Below, piece by piece: positions 2,991 to 36,580 of a stretch of DNA of 64,000 nt (its first letter is position 1; the number at the start of each line of letters is the position of its first letter). A program made the translations under genes and the position numbers. The stretch is from Clostridia bacterium (GTDB lineage Bacteria; Bacillota; Clostridia; Christensenellales; CAG-138), in the NCBI GenBank assembly GCA_036677445.1, contig JAVBWI010000006.1, positions 15,462 to 79,461 of the forward strand, written 5' to 3'. The notes under the pieces were generated by a model that did not search any database, was not told the DNA's origin, and was given only the letters and a program-made list of their open reading frames with translations.

Positions 2991-3659
2991 ATGGATACAT
3001 TTCGCGGTTTAACGGAGGATACCTATCGCTTTTTCTGGGAATTGGCGTTTCATAATGATTCCGTATTTTTTGAAGAGAATCGCAAACGTTATGAGACGGT
3101 AGTGAAAAAGCCGATGCTGCAGATTGCCGCCGCGCTTGCGGATACGGCGTTGCAGGTGGATCCTTCGTTTAATGTGCGCCCTGCCGCAGTGGTCTCGCGT
3201 ATCCGGCGGGATACGCGCTATACCAAGGATAAATCGCCGTATCGGGACCATGCTTTTCTGTCTTACAAATACCCGGGTATGTCCACGGGGGAAAGCTTCG
3301 TGCTTTACGCCGAGTTTGAGCGCGACGCTTACGGCTACGGTATGGGGATGTATTGCCCTTTGCCGCAGTATATGGCGGATGTGCGCAAGCGTATGCTGGC
3401 GCAGCCCAGCCGGTTTCTCTCACTGGTCAACGACCAGTCGGTAAGCGGAAAATTTGAAGTGCACGGCGAAGACTATAAGCGCCCAAGGTTTCCGGATGCC
3501 CCAAAGGAGCTGCAGCCGTGGCTTAATAAACGGGGCCTGGCATTCTGTTATTCCTCCAAGGCGCTGCCTAACACCATGAAGCCGGAGCTGGTCGAGGAAA
3601 TAAAAGAGGGCTTCCTAATATTGAAGCCGCTGTACCGTTTCATTCAGGGGATCGAATAA
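2991..3659 (+). CDS. DUF2461 (TIGR02453) family protein
   Basis: N-terminal FFWELAFHNDSVFFEENRKRYE and central VSRIRRDTRYTKDKSPYRDH match the DUF2461 pattern (NN..WF...Y ... RI.RD.RF..DK.PYK) as I recall it. Confidence 0.7.
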   Translation: MDTFRGLTEDTYRFFWELAFHNDSVFFEENRKRYETVVKKPMLQIAAALADTALQVDPSFNVRPAAVVSRIRRDTRYTKDKSPYRDHAFLSYKYPGMSTGESFVLYAEFERDAYGYGMGMYCPLPQYMADVRKRMLAQPSRFLSLVNDQSVSGKFEVHGEDYKRPRFPDAPKELQPWLNKRGLAFCYSSKALPNTMKPELVEEIKEGFLILKPLYRFIQGIE

Positions 3660-6173: not shown

Positions 6174-6737
6174 ATGCAGTGGTTCAAGAATAACGTAAGG
6201 ATGCTGCTGTACATGATCCTTATCCTCGCTTTGGGGGTATGGGGCGGCTTTACGTTGCGCGATATGCAGATGCCAAAAAGCGAGACGCCGGTGCAGACGC
6301 CCATCGCGGAGCCTGTGAGTCAGATCGGGGAGGCGAGTATACTGCCGGATACGGAGGTAACGATGCGCTATACCTTCCTTCTGTGCGGGCATACGCTTGA
6401 GCAGCATCAGACCGGCGGGCCTCTTATAGGAAATACGCTGGAGGATATTACAACATCCTTTCCGGATGCGCGCGTGCAGGAATTGAACGGCAAGCGTGCG
6501 ATCATCGAGCGTGAGCTGGAACGCTATTGTCCCGCGCATATTCTGCTGTTCCTGGATGGCGCGGGTAACTTGTGCATTTCCCATACGGATGAGACGGATT
6601 ATGAAAAGGACGTTGTTACCACGCTTACATACGATGTATCGGGTTTGCCTGAGGAGGTCATTTCACTGTTGGAGGAAGGCATGGTATTTGACAGCCTTGA
6701 GCAGGTGAACGCATATTTGGAGGATGTCGAAAGTTAG
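6174..6737 (+). CDS. Membrane-anchored hypothetical protein
   Basis: AGGAGG lies 7 nt upstream of the ATG at 6174, and the N-terminal anchor is MQWFKNNVRMLLYMILILALGVWGG. The longer 5973 start would overlap the opposite-strand PH-domain gene. Confidence 0.55.
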   Translation: MQWFKNNVRMLLYMILILALGVWGGFTLRDMQMPKSETPVQTPIAEPVSQIGEASILPDTEVTMRYTFLLCGHTLEQHQTGGPLIGNTLEDITTSFPDARVQELNGKRAIIERELERYCPAHILLFLDGAGNLCISHTDETDYEKDVVTTLTYDVSGLPEEVISLLEEGMVFDSLEQVNAYLEDVES

Positions 6738-6762
6738 ATTTCGCGATGTGAATAAAGGCGCA

Positions 6763-6972
6763 GATAAACTCCTTGGGGATCAGGGATCAGCCCAGGGAGG
6801 CTTCCAACCGCCGCCAGCGACATGTGCGGTGGCGGGCGTCGCAAGGCTTTCCTTGCAGGAACAACCGCCCGTGCCATAGGCACAGGTTGTTCTTGTAATC
6901 TTCGAAGAAGTGCCGCAAGGCACTTCTTCGACTGAAAGGCGCTGTATCTCCAACGGGATACAGGCCTTTTTT
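6763..6972 (+). repeat. Structured intergenic element, copy A (candidate ncRNA or 3'UTR element ending in its own terminator)
   Basis: Shares four conserved blocks with 34285..34553. It contains hairpins CCGCCGCC/GGTGGCGG, CAGGAACAACC/GGTTGTTCTTG and CGAAGAAGTGCC-gcaa-GGCACTTCTTCG. It ends in the terminator CTGTATC..GATACAGGCCTTTTTT (6935-6972). Confidence 0.7.
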
Positions 6973-6974
6973 CG

Positions 6975-7003
6975 TTGCATACGCCGCACGCAGGTTGTAT
7001 ACT
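6975..7003 (+). promoter_or_regulatory. Sigma-A-type promoter for proA
   Basis: TTGCAT-17 nt-TATACT, located between the element-A terminator and the proA SD and ATG. Confidence 0.55.
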
Positions 7004-8285: not shown

Positions 8286-9092
8286 ATGGATCAAAGTGCG
8301 AAGCATTGCAACAACAGGGGTTCCTGCCGCCGATGGATGCGTGCGGGTATGCTGGTCTGTTGTCTGCCGGCCATTTTGACGCTTTGCGCCTGTACGCCGC
8401 AGGTACCGGCGGAAACGACAATTATGCCGGAGGAAACGCCGACGGTGCAAACACCGGCGCCACAGCGGGAGGACAATCCTGTAGAGGTATTTTGGAACAG
8501 GTTTGAAGAGGCATATGTTCCCTATCGGACGGCGATGGATATGGCGGCGGGCACGCCGGAGCGGATCGGGCTATTGGATAAGGCGCTGACGTTAGATCTC
8601 CATTTACAGCGGCTGCAGCAGATGTTTCTCGCTCTCACAAGCCTGCGGCAGAATGACGATAACAGAGAACTATGGGATGGCATGCTTTTTGGCGCAATGG
8701 AAGGAACGGGCAGCGTAGCCGGAACGGCGGGTAACTGTACGTTTTCCTGTACGTTTTCGGATACAAGCCAACTAAGGGGAGAATTGAAAAACGATAAGCT
8801 GGAGAGCGTCTGGCAGGGCGAAGGCTGGACAGTCCGTCGGGGAGAAATACTGCATACGGATGCCGGCTGGTATGCATTGGTGGTATGGGAAGACACGAAC
8901 AGCCTGCTTAATATTGCGGAGGACGCGCTTTGGTTTCGCGAGAACTTGGCCGACATATCGATATCGGATATGCCTCTGCCGCCTGCCGAATGGGCGGATT
9001 GGGGATATCAAAACGGTTCTTTCTTAGAAAGCGACGGAAGTACAATGAATGATCGCGGCAACGCAGTGGAAAATGGCGGCGATGTATTTTAA
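8286..9092 (+). CDS. Putative lipoprotein, unknown function (start uncertain)
   Basis: MRAGMLVCCLPAILTLCAC looks like a lipoprotein signal with a lipobox. No clear SD precedes either the ATG at 8286 or the one at 8337. Confidence 0.5.
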   Translation: MDQSAKHCNNRGSCRRWMRAGMLVCCLPAILTLCACTPQVPAETTIMPEETPTVQTPAPQREDNPVEVFWNRFEEAYVPYRTAMDMAAGTPERIGLLDKALTLDLHLQRLQQMFLALTSLRQNDDNRELWDGMLFGAMEGTGSVAGTAGNCTFSCTFSDTSQLRGELKNDKLESVWQGEGWTVRRGEILHTDAGWYALVVWEDTNSLLNIAEDALWFRENLADISISDMPLPPAEWADWGYQNGSFLESDGSTMNDRGNAVENGGDVF

Positions 9093-31046: not shown

Positions 31047-31294
31047 CGCATGTAAATGTCCAAAATCCTTCGAATAATATACATTTTTTCACACAACTTG
31101 TTATTATGCCGGAATTGAAATGAACGATATATAGAATGTAGCGCTTTTTCGCCCTTTATAATAAATTTGATAAATGCGCGCTGCTGCCCTGTAAGTGTTC
31201 AGGCGGTGCGCGTACAAGGCGTGGAAGCAGTGTGGCGGAATGACATTTGTATAATCCGAATCCCTGGCCAACGAAAAATGTGAGGATGAGTGCC

Positions 31295-31747
31295 GTGAAA
31301 ATCAAGGATGTGCGTCAAATACCGGCCGGATCCCAAAGGATCGGCGGCATTGATGAAAAGAGGAGCACAGATGGCTTTGAGCAGGAGTTTCAGCGTCATA
31401 AGCATGATACAAGTACAGCGGAATACGAACGGTATATTCGCGAGCTGACACAAAAGATTCAGCGGCAAGGCGAACTGGTAAGCAACAAAGCGGATTTGGC
31501 GGAATTTCAAAAATACAGGGAGCTGATCAGCGAACTGCTCAATGAAACGGTCAGCAATTCGTATGCATTTTGCAAGACCAGCCAATTCGATGCAAGGGGC
31601 AGGCACAAGGTGTTTGCGCTTATTCGGAGGGTGAACAAACAGTTGGATGAGCTTGCGGCAGAGATACTCAAGCATGAAGCCGATACGATCAAGCTGCTGG
31701 CAATTGTGGATGACATTCGAGGGTTGCTTGTGGATCTGTTTTTTTAG
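31295..31747 (+). CDS. DUF327 (YaaR) family protein
   Basis: The coiled-coil-rich sequence ends ...LDELAAEILKHEADTIKLLAIVDDIRGLLVDLF, typical of DUF327 as I recall it. A GTG start (VKIKD) was chosen for the GAGGA 8 nt upstream. ATG 31286 is the alternative. Confidence 0.65.
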   Translation: MKIKDVRQIPAGSQRIGGIDEKRSTDGFEQEFQRHKHDTSTAEYERYIRELTQKIQRQGELVSNKADLAEFQKYRELISELLNETVSNSYAFCKTSQFDARGRHKVFALIRRVNKQLDELAAEILKHEADTIKLLAIVDDIRGLLVDLFF

Positions 31748-31806
31748 GTAATGGTTAAAAGACCGGCAATTACATTTCCTTACAGAACAGCGAAAGGGGT
31801 ATGCAT

Positions 31807-32313
31807 ATGGCATTGAGGCAGTTGAATGATACAGGGGAACTGGAAGACACGCAGCGGGGCCGCTATCTCACGTTTGCTTTAGGCGAAGAGATTTTTGGCA
31901 TCGAGATACGTCATGTACTCGAGATCATCGGTATTCTGCCAATTACCCGGCTGCCAGGCGCGCCGGATTATATCAAGGGTATCATCAACCTTAGGGGCAG
32001 AATCATACCCGTGGTGGATGTCCGGCTGAAATTCAAAAAACCTGCCGCCGCTTATGACGACAGAACCTGCATTATTGTGACGGAAACGCAGGATATCTCG
32101 GTGGGATTGATCATAGACCACGTGACGGAGGTCGTGACAATAGAAGATGAGGATATCGTGCCGCCACCGCAATATGCCGATGGACAGGCCCGCTACATTC
32201 AAGGCATCAGCAAGGCGGACGGCAAGGTGGTACTCCTGCTGGATTGCGTAACGCTTTTCAGCGAAGAGGCGGAAGCCCATTCGCATACACCAAGAAAGGA
32301 GGGTGTACTGTGA
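31807..32313 (+). CDS. cheW: Chemotaxis coupling protein CheW (paralog 2)
   Basis: [37 protein letters not shown] and [10 protein letters not shown]. It is roughly 65-70 percent identical by eye to paralog 1. Confidence 0.9.
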
Positions 32314-34268
32314 AGAAGCTTAACGTGAGTTTCAAGGCAAAGATCGTAATCGGCTTTCTCATCGTAGCATTGCTTGTTGCGGCGGCGGGAGCGCTGGGGA
32401 TCAATAACCAAATGGATATGGCGCGGCGAAACCAGGCGATGTACGAAGACTCTATCAAGCCGCTGATGATGGTCTCGAACGCTTCGCAATTATGCCAAAA
32501 AAGCAGAATTGCGCTGGGCAACGCGGTGCTGGGCAATGACGGACTGCACAGGATGAAGCAGGTTGAAGAACTAAACGTGCAGCTGCAATCTCTCAAAACA
32601 CAGCTTCAGATGCTTTCGGACCAGTTTGGCGGAGAGGAGTATGAAATCGTCTCCACCGTTATGCAGTCTGCGGAAGCATACGAGGCGGCGTTTGGAAACA
32701 GTACGGAGCTAGCAAAGCTGGGGGCCGTTGCTGCAAGCGACCTGCTGCTGGAGGCGGACACGTTGGCGGCGAATATTCAGTCCGGCCTTATGTCGCTGGA
32801 GGTTCGGCTGAACAATAGGGCGATCGAGAATTATAATCTTGCAAATGCTTCGACCCAAAGAGCGAAGGTTTATCTGGTGGCGCTGATAGCGGTCGGCGTA
32901 GTGTTGTCCGTGATCATGGGGATATCCATTGCGCGCATGATTATAAAGCCCATCCGGGAGGCTTCCGCGCAACTGGAAAAGGTTGCGGCAGGCGACATGC
33001 AGGGCGATATGAACGCAGCCATTTTCAAGAGCGAATTCAAAGTGATTGGATCGGATCTCCAACGGGTACGGGGTTCGCTGAATTTGCTGCTTGAACAAGT
33101 ACAGCATCTTTCCAATGCAGCTATCGAGGGCAGACTTTCCGAACGGGCGGATACACAGGAGCTTCGGGGCGAATACCGTGAGATCGTAGAAGGCATCAAC
33201 CACACGCTTGACGCTATCATAGCGCCTATCACTACTGCTACGGATGTGATGAACATTATGTCGGACGGTGAGTACAACATAAGCGTGGAGGGCGATTTCC
33301 AGGGTGATCATGCGATTATCAAGAATGCGCTGAATTCCTCAATTGATACAATAAACAGATGCTTTGGGGAAATCAATGCAGTACTCAACAAAATTGCGCA
33401 GGGCGATATGCGGACCGGGATTACTTCGCAGTTCCCCGGTAACTTTGTAAAGATTCAACAAGCCATTAATGCGATTATTACCTCGCTCAACGGCGTGCTT
33501 TCGGATATTGCAGGCGCCTCGGAACAGGTCGCGTCCGGCAGCAAGCAGGTATCGGACAGCAGCCAGACGATATCCAATGGTGCAAATACACAGGCATGCG
33601 CGCTCGAACAGCTTACGGCATCCATCACGCAGATTGCAGAGCAAACCAAGCAAAACGCTGTAAATGCCAATAAAGCCAACGAGCTTTCCATTTCCGCAAG
33701 AGAAGATGCGCTCACGGGCAACGAACGGATGAAAGGCATGCAAATTGCCATGACGGAGATCGACGATGCGTCAAGAAGCATTTCCAAAGTGATCAAAGTC
33801 ATCGACGACATTGCATTCCAAACCAACATACTTGCGCTCAACGCCGCGGTGGAAGCCGCAAGGGCGGGTATGCACGGCAAAGGTTTTGCCGTAGTAGCCG
33901 AGGAAGTTCGAAACCTGGCCATAAGGAGCGCGAAGGCTGCGCAGGAGACGACCGAGCTCATAGAAAGATCGATTAAAAAAACAAGCGCAGGTACGAAAAT
34001 TGCGGATGAAACAGCGCTTGCGCTGACGAATATCGTAAACAGCGTGGAACGGGCGGTAGAACTTGTGGGTGATATCGCCAAGGCATCCAACGAGCAGGCG
34101 GCGGCAATTGCGCAGATAGACAACGGAATCACACAGATGTCAGAGATCGTACAGACCAATTCCGCCATTTCCGAGGAAACAGCGGCCGCGGCCACAGAGC
34201 TTTCGGATCTGGCGGAGCTGTTGAAGGAAAAGGTCGGGCAGTTCAAGCTGCAGTCTTATGAAATCTGA
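32310..34268 (+). CDS. Methyl-accepting chemotaxis protein
   Basis: The GTG start has AAGGAGGG upstream and overlaps the cheW stop (GTGA). There is an N-terminal TM sensor region. The signalling hairpin is [39 protein letters not shown]. Confidence 0.9.
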
Positions 34269-34284
34269 ACCCAAATATCACGTC

Positions 34285-34553
34285 GATAAACCCCTTGGTG
34301 ATTCGGGGGCCACGGCCCCCGGAGGCTTCCAACCGCCGCCAGCGACATGCGCGGTGGTGGCGGAAAGCCTTGCGGCGCAAGGCTTTCCTTGCAGGAACAA
34401 CCGGTCCTCGGCGGGAGACGCCTCGGACACTAGGCCTGCGGGCCGTCGCCGTCACCGTAGGCACAGGGTGTTCCTGTAATCCTCGAAAAAGTGCCTCATA
34501 AGGCACTTTTCGACAAGTTTGGCACTTGGCGGTATAGCCGCCAAGTGCCTTTT
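34285..34553 (+). repeat. Structured intergenic element, copy B (candidate ncRNA or 3'UTR element ending in its own terminator)
   Basis: It has the same four conserved blocks as copy A. It adds hairpins GGGGGCC-ac-GGCCCCC and GGAAAGCCTTGC-ggc-GCAAGGCTTTCC, and a 63-nt insertion inside the CAGGAACAACC/GGGTGTTCCTG helix. It ends with the terminator GGCACTTGGCGG-tata-GCCGCCAAGTGCC-TTTT (34521-34553). Confidence 0.7.
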
Positions 34554-34708
34554 GGCCGTAACAACGATATTCTAATTTTCGGCATACGCGTATCCGGGCG
34601 TATCCTGTCAAAATCCATATCATGCTTAATCGAAAAAACACGATATAAATATAAAGGCAATATACAAAGGAATGGTTAATCGTGGAAGACGTTACAAAAG
34701 GCAGAGAC

Positions 34709-35524
34709 ATGATCAAACTCAGCGACCAGGAATTTGCGACGCTGACGGAATATCTTCGCCGTGGGTATGGTATTAACCTGAGCAAAAAGCGCACGCTCAT
34801 CGAAGGCCGTATGAACCATTATTTGATCAAGCATGGCTTCAACGATTATTCGACCTATTTTAAGGTTCTTTTCAACGATCCCTCCGGCTCGGAAATGAGC
34901 AACGTGATCAATGTGCTCACTACGAATTATTCGTATTTCATGCGTGAATGGGCGCATTTTGAGTATTACCGGAATACTCTTTTGCCGCAGATCAAGGCAG
35001 CTGCGACGGATCATGACATTAGGGTTTGGAGCGCAGGCTGCTCTACAGGGGAGGAGCCATATACGCTTGCCATGCTCAATAACGAATTTTTCGGTCACGA
35101 GAGCAGGCTTTGGGATAAACGGATACTTGCAACGGATATCTCGGAGAAGGTGCTCAATTCAGCGCAATCGGGGATATATGCCAGCGAGGCATTGGAAAAC
35201 GTACCCAAAGTATGGCAGATGCAGTATTTTGATCGCCTGGATGATGGAAATATGCAAGTGAAGCAGTCCTTGAAAAACGAGGTGATCTTCAGAAGATTTA
35301 ATCTTATGGAGAAGGTGTTTCCGTTTAAAAAGAAGTTCCATGTAATATTTTGCCGCAATGTCATGATCTATTTCGACAGCAAAACGAAGAACGAGCTTGT
35401 GAATAGATTCTACGAGTCGTTGGAGAAAGGCGGCTATCTGTTGGTAGGACATTCCGAATCGGTAGATCGGGCAACTACAAAATTTTCGTATGTCATGCCG
35501 TCAGTTTATAAAAAAGGTCAGTGA
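34709..35524 (+). CDS. cheR: Chemotaxis protein methyltransferase CheR
   Basis: SDQEFATLTEYL, VWSAGCSTGEEPYTLAM and IFCRNVMIYFD are CheR motifs. An alternative GTG start is at 34682. Confidence 0.9.
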   Translation: MIKLSDQEFATLTEYLRRGYGINLSKKRTLIEGRMNHYLIKHGFNDYSTYFKVLFNDPSGSEMSNVINVLTTNYSYFMREWAHFEYYRNTLLPQIKAAATDHDIRVWSAGCSTGEEPYTLAMLNNEFFGHESRLWDKRILATDISEKVLNSAQSGIYASEALENVPKVWQMQYFDRLDDGNMQVKQSLKNEVIFRRFNLMEKVFPFKKKFHVIFCRNVMIYFDSKTKNELVNRFYESLEKGGYLLVGHSESVDRATTKFSYVMPSVYKKGQ

Positions 35525-35530
35525 AAAGAG

Positions 35531-36580
35531 ATGGTAACAAAGAAAACAAGAGTTTTGATCGTAGACGATTCTCTGTTCATGCGCCAGTTCATCAGCAACG
35601 CCGTATCAATGGATCCGGGTATCGAGGTGGTGGGTACGGCAGGCGATCCGTACGATGCGCGTGATAAAATACTGGAACTCAACCCGGACGTGATGACGCT
35701 CGATGTTGAAATGCCCAAGATGAACGGCATCGAATTCCTGAAAAAGCTGATGCCGCAATATCCGCTTCCGGTTCTGGTGGTAAGCTCGGCAGCCAATATC
35801 GTATTCGACGCTATGCAGGCGGGCGCGGTGGATTTTGTGAACAAGCCTTCAACGATGAATGAGAATGAACGAAATACGTTTATCTCCGAGCTGATTATTA
35901 AGATCAAGATCGCATCCATTGCAAAGGTAGGGCGGCACAAACACAGTGCGCATCGGAGCGAGACGACGAAAAGCGCCGATGCAGGCAATGCCGAACGTTT
36001 GATCGCGGCGATCGGCGCTTCAACAGGGGGTACGGAAGCGACGGCGGATATACTGATGAATCTGAAAAACTGTACGCTTGGAATCGTTGTGGTGCAGCAT
36101 ATGCCGCCCGTATTTACAAGGCTGTATGCAGAGAGGCTGAATAACTCCTGTATGATGGAGGTGAAAGAAGCGGTCGATGGCGACGCCGTAACGCCCGGAA
36201 GAGTACTGATCGCACCGGGCGACTATCATATGCAGGTCGAAAAGTACGGCTCGGGATACCGCGTCAAATGTTTCAAGGGCGAAAAGGTGAGCGGACATTG
36301 TCCTTCCGTCGATGTTCTGTTTGAATCCGTAGCAAAGGCTGCGGGCGCAAATGCGATGGGCATCATACTCACGGGCATGGGCAGCGACGGTGCAAACGGC
36401 CTTTTAAGCATGCGCAAGAAGGGAGCCGCAACAATAGGCCAAAACAAGGAGACCTGTGTGGTGTATGGCATGCCGATGGTTGCAAACAAAATCGGAGCTG
36501 TGCAAATCGAAACGCCGTTGACGGAAATACCCGCTCGGATGTGCCAGTGGTACAACGAAAAGCTCAATCAAAATCGATGA
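35531..36580 (+). CDS. cheB: Chemotaxis response regulator protein-glutamate methylesterase CheB
   Basis: REC domain (RVLIVDDSLFMR, DVEMPKMNG) plus esterase motifs IGASTGG, HMP and GMGSDG. Confidence 0.95.
   Translation: MVTKKTRVLIVDDSLFMRQFISNAVSMDPGIEVVGTAGDPYDARDKILELNPDVMTLDVEMPKMNGIEFLKKLMPQYPLPVLVVSSAANIVFDAMQAGAVDFVNKPSTMNENERNTFISELIIKIKIASIAKVGRHKHSAHRSETTKSADAGNAERLIAAIGASTGGTEATADILMNLKNCTLGIVVVQHMPPVFTRLYAERLNNSCMMEVKEAVDGDAVTPGRVLIAPGDYHMQVEKYGSGYRVKCFKGEKVSGHCPSVDVLFESVAKAAGANAMGIILTGMGSDGANGLLSMRKKGAATIGQNKETCVVYGMPMVANKIGAVQIETPLTEIPARMCQWYNEKLNQNR

Follow-up and report, generated by a model that had tools for sequence, protein, structure and literature searches.

A probable new family of miniature inverted-repeat elements in uncultured Clostridia that duplicates the hairpins it targets

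[quoted passage not shown] MITEs measure ~50-500 bp and lack coding capacity. The family of both copies, named E here, is a new MITE family of uncultured Clostridia, and its unusual trait is a hairpin-targeted insertion that duplicates the whole hairpin.

The first-pass annotation of this DNA had proposed a structured RNA. Its description of a conserved and strongly structured element of the 3' untranslated region (3' UTR) holds, but not the reading as a dedicated small RNA (sRNA) or 3'-UTR regulator, against which stand the dispersed copies, the inverted repeats and the duplications; E is probably not a dedicated regulatory RNA. The same annotation had named what would indicate a MITE instead, dozens of copies with terminal inverted repeats and target-site duplications, and this is what the family turned out to have.

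Two copies in the window and the proA locus

Copy A (6762-6934, + strand; nhmmer E-value of 1e-46 against the family profile) and copy B (~34277-34519, + strand; 1e-52) were delimited with the profile, alignments and folding, and both are decayed. They are homologous, with five-hairpin folds and compensatory changes between them. The four blocks previously reported as common to 6763-6932 and 34285-34514 were all recovered, and the longest two (29 and 26 nt) occur nowhere else in the window beyond A and B, for a chance expectation of 0. Searching the window for further copies or partial modules retrieved only A and B. Compared with shuffled sequences, the + strand folds reached z-scores of -8.8 and -8.4 for the two copies, and the - strand folds were weaker (z about -6).

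The three hairpins already named for these sequences are present in the copies, and the complete layout is as follows. Copy A contains P2 (6808-6835), a remnant of P3 (6841-6856), P4 (6856-6895, with an inner hairpin at 6871-6883), and P5 (6902-6931). Copy B contains P1 (34305-34320), P2 (34333-34360), P3 (34362-34388), P4 (34392-34476), and P5 (34483-34513). The arms are CCGCCGCC/GGTGGCGG for P2, GGAAAGCCTTGC/GCAAGGCTTTCC for P3 (5' half missing in copy A), CAGGAACAACC/GGTTGTTCYTG for P4, whose inner hairpin is GTGCC/GGCAC, and CGAARAAGTGCC/GGCACTTYTTCG for P5. P5 is the 12-bp stem for which a G:C to A:U double change had been described; the change is real, but the 3' arm given for copy B was wrong, since it reads GGCACTTTTCG, with four Ts and not five, which leaves one A bulged in B.

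Decay took a different form in each copy. Copy A has lost part of its left inverted repeat (CAGATAAAC) and of its right end (TTCGACTG), along with the 5' half of P3. Copy B presents a diverged left end (CACGTCGATAAAC), a nested insert, the bulged A in P5, and an A/G mismatch in the P4 helix. In line with the first-pass annotation, the two copies differ in length within loops, with 48 nt inserted in that of P4 in B and 11 nt deleted from the P3 5' half in A, and they have no open reading frame (ORF) in common, with indels breaking every frame among the copies.

Each copy follows a stop codon closely. These codons end at 6737 (before A) and 34268 (before B), and the distances are ~24 nt for A and ~9-16 nt for B (about 20 nt had been noted for both). 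An unrelated terminator hairpin after each copy was correctly noted too. The one after copy A (6935-6973, + strand) was found by terminator scan (stem at 6942-6963 plus T run) and is the host intrinsic terminator of the upstream 187-aa gene and the insertion target, in the same order as in the empty locus described below; it would now close the 3' UTR that holds copy A. After copy B, sequence and fold reveal a terminator-like hairpin with a 13-bp stem and a TTTT tail (34521-34555, hairpin at 34521-34549, + strand), which would end the transcript of the preceding gene and was missed by the scan because its tail has only four Ts. No terminator was found upstream of copy A or copy B. Since both copies sit between a stop codon and a terminator, they are presumably transcribed in the 3' UTR of the preceding gene, in transcripts that would end at the host terminator. 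Next to copy A, an 8-bp remnant of the upstream terminator duplicate (AAAGGCGC, 6754-6761, + strand) is found again at 6935-6942, opening the downstream terminator, and both occurrences abut the element ends. Copy B has no upstream target duplication left.

Regarding the neighboring genes, copy A lies between an unannotated 187-aa gene and proA, and copy B between a methyl-accepting chemotaxis protein (MCP) gene and cheR (Pfam). The surroundings of copy B (31247-36580) form a chemotaxis cluster of CheW-like, MCP, cheR, and CheB-like genes, as read from ORF translations, with Pfam assignments for MCP and cheR only.

The proA locus could be compared among species. The window's ProA shares 80% identity with a protein from Feifaniaceae, and the gene order near proA is conserved in two related species (loci L221 and L219). 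In L221, a spacer of 143 nt holds only the stop codon, the terminator, and a TTGCAT/TATACT promoter, without the element; the window has the same arrangement with E interposed at the 5' foot of the terminator. The corresponding place in L219 holds a ~290-nt repeat of another family (X), with a 47-nt mini-repeat, between two diverged copies of that terminator. Because the species are only ~80% identical in ProA, the comparison shows presence and absence of E, with an insertion point that is not base-exact.

Outside the element, a proA promoter-like site TTGCAT-17-TATACT was read from the sequence at 6975-7003 (+ strand) and is conserved in L221 and L219. A promoter of proA's own past the copy-A terminator had been claimed before; it is below the scan threshold, yet its conservation in the two orthologous loci backs the claim. 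Across the three species, the form TTGC(A/G)N-17-TATACT is kept (window 6975-7003; L221 2423-2451; L219 ~2426-2454), whereas the rest of the spacer is not. A proA leader or attenuator was ruled out by this conserved promoter downstream of the terminator and by the absence of the element at the orthologous locus, in agreement with the previous statement that the element is not a proA leader.

Short-read contigs with identical or 98%-identical ProA stop inside the element, the usual effect of a dispersed repeat on assemblies. Two Logan contigs with the proA of the window (L217 1-90 and L218 1-95) come from independent short-read assemblies, one for this organism and one for a 98% relative, and they break exactly inside copy A at a block common to A and B.

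The element family and its target duplications

Family E comprises ~60 copies overall (nhmmer, family profile) in at least 12 MAGs and metagenomes of uncultured, Feifaniaceae-like Clostridia. A first scan used the exact 17-mer GGAGGCTTCCAACCGCC against one genome per species. Besides chance matches, it retrieved true homologues in ~28 loci from 11 uncultured Bacillota MAGs, with eight loci in MAG OH_HFB_328, four in Eubacteriales bin.350, and others in a Feifaniaceae MAG and Christensenella sp. UBA7707; at least eight copies match the exact 17-mer in one MAG. A second scan, with a 21-mer from a different block against metagenomes, retrieved 33 loci, 31 of them from one metagenome sample. Three full copies and one deletion derivative lie on a single 11-kb metagenome contig.

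Plasmid and phage collections gave no match to E. In viral contigs, a 14-mer scan found only chance matches and the 21-mer scan found none. The 18 matches of the 17-mer in viral contigs were discarded as coincidence: one is isolated, and 17 fall in one unrelated conserved phage region (L101, L114, L122, and 14 other IMG/VR loci) that contains GGAGGCTTCCAACCGCC and is otherwise unlike E. The seed alone is not diagnostic.

Intact copies measure ~197 bp (range 189-198 bp) and present no conserved ORF. They end in 15-bp imperfect terminal inverted repeats, 5'-CAGACTGTCRAAAAA ... TTTTTCGACAAGCTG-3', with exact boundaries given by locus L248 and the alignment. The left terminus CAGACTGTCAAAAAA and the right terminus TTTTTCGACAAGCTG are conserved across loci, and the left end is decayed in both window copies. 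E thus has the features of a MITE: small and non-coding, with terminal inverted repeats, flanking duplications, and dispersed copies that differ in presence at orthologous sites. The literature search retrieved no description of this family, nor of MITEs that duplicate hairpins.

Several variants were found. One deletion derivative, without P2-P3, is flanked by a perfect hairpin duplication that is specific to it; L041 and L050 hold shorter forms, and some copies carry an extra module of ~40-100 nt inside the P1 loop. This alternative 5' module (…CTTCATCTGCCACTGGCAGCGCTCGGCTCCGGCTCC) was seen in L005 (~3205-3355), L047, L017, L016/L035, and L090 (5653-5735), and in copies with the P1-loop insertion the true left end (TGTCGAAAACTCCTTGGGGG…) lies further upstream.

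The target duplications are the most distinctive trait of the family. In 16 of the 26 full copies, direct repeats of 22-37 bp abut both ends, and the median alignment score of the flanks was 38, whereas mismatched flank pairs, used as the null, scored 14 at the median and 20 at the 95th percentile. Each of the 16 duplicated flanks forms a hairpin that leaves 0-5 nt unpaired on either side, and these stem-loops are usually intrinsic terminators. Several targets are unique to their locus; others, from one metagenome, represent versions of a shared REP-like hairpin (GTATCGCCGCC...GGCGGCGAC). The remaining ten full copies, including copy B, have no flanking duplication. In locus L073, the target is a bidirectional terminator whose A run and T run stay outside the duplication; therefore, the stem-loop itself is the copied unit.

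Two insertions of one MAG (L073 5960-6215 and L074 1660-1930) have duplicated terminators with identical stems and inverted loops (TTTTA vs. TAAAA, and TTAAA vs. TTTAA), unlike the other 14 E duplications, which are direct. Template switching within the hairpin, or opening of the hairpin at integration, could explain the inverted loops.

A sister family, Y, is a 234-bp repeat from the metagenome that has the 31 E loci, with ends (CAGGCCGTCGACAAA...TTTGTCGACACTCTG) similar to those of E. Its type copy is at L248 5271-5504, and about 12 further full copies are in L225, L226, L227, L229, L235, L239, L242, L246, and L250; copies are 92-99% identical. Eight of nine full Y copies have hairpin duplications of 18-25 bp, seven directly at the element ends and one within 2 nt, and all eight targets are distinct hairpins. 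Three Y copies are nested in E copies, where the duplicated sequence is P3, inner P4 or the P5 apex of E. In these cases, the uninterrupted E consensus is the pre-insertion sequence, so the empty site is exactly known. Stem-loop duplication on insertion is thus demonstrated for family Y.

Family X is a repeat of ~240-290 nt (L219 2105-2345) that starts with ...TGTCAAGAAG...GGTATCGGCGC-loop-GCGCCGA. Relatives are located just upstream of E in L061 and L083, and solo ends in L222 (~3470-3526) and L225 (~8483-8535). Its internal REP-like hairpin (GTATCGCCGCC...GGCGGCGAC) is also the duplicated target of several E copies.

The insert in the P4 loop of copy B (34403-34450, + strand) is a nested mini-repeat of 47-48 nt (GGTCCTCGGCGGGAGACGCCTCGGACACTAGGCCTGCGGGCCGTCGCC), with the same sequence at L010 6944-6991, L070 2884-2931, L219 2162-2206, L236 4388-4434, and L017 5251-5297. 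It is GC-rich and occupies the loops of hairpins in more than one type of repeat, in both orientations, as well as sites away from E. In L070 it sits in the P2 loop, reversed relative to its host E copy; in L219 it is within family X; in L017 and L236 it is apart from any E. A 3-bp GTC/GAC repeat possibly flanks it, and it looks like a separate tiny mobile unit.

Structural conservation and competing explanations

The fold is conserved beyond the two window copies. Among 21 copies of E, 97.6% of the cells pair, against 40-49% when the partners are slid, and ten pairs changed on both sides compared to 3.4 ± 1.5 in shuffles. The compensatory changes are significant. When 42 copies were inspected on the + strand, leaving out P1 and one fixed P2 wobble, G.U occupied 46 cells at 26 positions and A.C 11 cells at 8 positions; this excess indicates that the fold of one strand is favored. 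Such order in the hairpins exceeds the needs of a decaying selfish repeat; together with one orthologous pair in which E is better kept than the flanking genes, it would allow for an RNA- or single-strand-level role.

Both results speak for E being primarily a functional structured RNA (an sRNA or a stabilizer or terminator module of the 3' UTR) that multiplied because it was useful and kept its hairpins for that role. They are joined by a terminator hairpin within ~5-10 nt past almost every copy and by the shape of P5, which is an A-tract, a GC-stem and a U-tract. Despite these points, we regard this explanation as unlikely in view of the genomic context and of the element's own architecture.

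For the context, genes were called with a codon log-odds caller, since naive longest-ORF calls got strands wrong in GC-rich DNA. The 37 classifiable copies were 14 convergent, 5 divergent, 6 tandem-sense, and 12 tandem-antisense. Thirty-two of them abut a gene 3' end, without a sense bias, and the tandem copies are more often antisense than sense, which speaks against an RNA gene. The neighboring genes are functionally unrelated (proA, cheR, and others), and E does not hold the constant, co-oriented position upstream of a functionally coherent gene set that a riboswitch or cis-leader would have. A sigma-70-like promoter scan found no site inside copy A or B, nor in the intergenic DNA just upstream; its sole site (6688-6717) belongs to the coding sequence of the upstream gene, ~45 nt before copy A. 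Lastly, the inverted-repeat ends, hairpin duplications, deletion derivatives, nested insertions, and empty orthologous site are signatures of a transposon.

Orthologous pairs of loci gave opposite answers. In L016/L035, E is 94% identical and the flanking genes 84-86%, which would favor selection on a functional RNA. In L065/L057, E is no better kept than its surroundings (94.7% vs. 95-100% for the flanks), and the two pairs thus disagree. In the first pair (L016 1688-2064 vs. L035 6191-6560), which come from two species, E together with 200 nt upstream is 94-98% identical, compared to the 84-86% of the flanking genes. The cause could be a tract gained by recombination or transfer, constraint on a promoter region, or selection acting on E.

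E also lacks an Rfam family. The Rfam 15 covariance-model search of the whole window gave 0 matches at gathering thresholds and only noise at E<=10, in line with the earlier failure to recognize any family. The best sub-threshold matches were PyrR (21.5 bits vs. a threshold of 54) and FsrA (24.7 vs. 80), which merely cover the two terminal hairpins and are generic. Group II introns, retrons, and bridge RNA or omega-RNA were dropped as candidates: there was no Rfam signal, no adjacent gene for reverse transcriptase, IscB, TnpB or IS110, and the kind of footprint was wrong.

The one-strand bias of the hairpins, their abundance near both ends of E, and the hairpin nature of the targets would also suit a mobility as single-stranded DNA through an HUH/Y1 transposase, in the style of IS200/IS605-derived PATEs or of RAYT/REP, with hairpins read on one strand. 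Elements of the IS200/IS605 and REPIN types have neither target duplications nor terminal inverted repeats, and E has both. Moreover, the sequences of P1 and P5 are not related to each other as those of the left- and right-end hairpins of IS200/IS605 are, and no tnpA or RAYT gene was found near any copy, so we consider this route very improbable. Even less credible is a Cas1-like integrase (casposase) that would insert E and duplicate a palindromic repeat as in CRISPR spacer acquisition: a segment between two ~20-37 bp palindrome copies is formally like the repeat duplication of Cas1-Cas2, and casposons combine inverted-repeat ends with long duplications (PMC5137440), but the duplications of 18-37 bp track hairpin size and not a fixed ruler, and no locus contains a cas1 gene.

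Proposed insertion route, related elements and meaning

For the preferred explanation, a hairpin-targeting MITE, we propose the following route. A transposase acting in trans would recognize an extruded hairpin or cruciform by its shape and not its sequence. The 3' ends of the element would then be joined to both strands at the 5' feet of the stem-loop, ~0-3 nt from the stem base, and gap repair would copy the whole stem-loop to both sides, giving a target-E-target arrangement. Since the duplication is mostly without the U tract, the proximal hairpin would be a poor terminator, and transcription would continue through E, as an additional and tightly folded stretch of 3' UTR, until it reaches the distal hairpin. 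In the window, the upstream duplicate has been lost except for the 8 bp at A, so that A and B would now be immediate parts of the 3' UTRs that follow the 187-aa and MCP genes. Effects on mRNA stability or termination would be a by-product.

This route, which the footprints of E and Y match, corresponds to what is called pathway b in the model of structure-dependent transposition proposed for IS1272 (IS1182 family). In Staphylococcus, IS1272 and TnSha1 use hairpins as insertion sites, and many of these are proven terminators; the sites lack a sequence consensus, and insertions occur in either orientation (PMC4923244). In the cruciform model, pathway b predicts duplication of the entire stem-loop, and replacement is what was observed for IS1272 itself (PMC5678879). 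In the literature searched, we found no documented case of the whole-stem-loop duplication proposed on paper for IS1272.

E resembles IS1272 and TnSha1 in its Firmicutes hosts, its stem-loop or terminator targets, the lack of a primary-sequence consensus, and the use of both orientations. Insertion at stem-loops or terminators without sequence consensus, as in IS1182-like elements, was seen for the 16 E targets and the 8 Y targets. Whereas IS1272 is a 1.9-kb autonomous element with 16-bp inverted repeats that deletes or replaces the hairpin, E is non-coding, has 197 bp, and duplicates it; and no IS1182-type transposase or matching inverted repeat is linked to E. An autonomous partner would be expected to be bounded by the end motifs CAGNCTGTCRAAAAA / TTTTTYGACANNCTG, and a search of the window and of ~1.08 Mb of fetched loci turned up no transposase-bearing element with E ends. 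The solo termini in L222 and L225 were rejected as such a partner, as they belong to other small repeats beside ordinary genes, and a looser scan for inverted-repeat pairs was uninformative because the pattern was too permissive. With no transposase partner found, we infer the mobility of E and its putative place in the IS1182 family from the footprints only.

Other small bacterial repeats share part of these features. Bacterial MITEs and mosaic repeats (Correia/NEMIS, RUP, BOX, SPRITE, bcr1, and ERIC) are likewise small, non-coding, multi-copy, and intergenic, with inverted-repeat ends, and they also have stable RNA folds, locations at gene 3' ends, and mutual insertion (PMC10969869, PMC3184786). 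They differ in having short fixed duplications (e.g., TA) or none, compared to the whole hairpin of 18-37 bp in E and Y, and E has no sequence similarity to any of the six. The IS1202 subgroup, first found in a Firmicute, is like E in its unusually long target duplications (16-28 bp; PMC10132070; bioRxiv 10.1101/2022.12.17.520857). However, within a subgroup that length does not vary, the element ends read 5'-TGT...ACA-3', and a hairpin target is not known for the long-duplication subgroup, whereas in E the length follows the hairpin. REP/BIME sequences, which stabilize mRNA 3' ends, are extragenic palindromes rich in GC that lie where genes end and serve as targets of insertion sequences (PMC1525189), and E joins 3' UTRs too. 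REPs are single palindromes of 20-40 nt mobilized by RAYT without duplication, unlike the five hairpins, 197 bp, and inverted-repeat ends of E.

A broader reading is possible, though we hold it as doubtful: E, Y, and probably X would form a MITE superfamily that integrates by shape alone at any stem-loop of 18-37 bp and duplicates it whole, with the + strand bias as the trace of a single-stranded RNA or DNA stage. If true, such a shape-guided superfamily could point to an undescribed transposase or mechanism and not to a plain IS1182 derivative.

For genome annotation, E-type elements are a tempting false positive that can now be removed, as they pass fold, covariation, and no-Rfam tests and yet are mobile repeats. 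The same repeats fragment short-read assemblies of a poorly known clade of gut and digester Clostridia. The footprints, with 16 E and 8 Y insertions, three of them with an exact empty site, and cuts that follow the hairpin base, support structure-dependent transposition, so far mainly represented by IS1272, with the hairpin deleted and not duplicated. They provide a concrete search image for the responsible transposase. With each insertion, the U tract of a terminator is cut off from its hairpin and a 3' UTR gains ~200 nt of folded RNA; thus, a burst of E-type insertions could rewire termination and mRNA stability at many genes.
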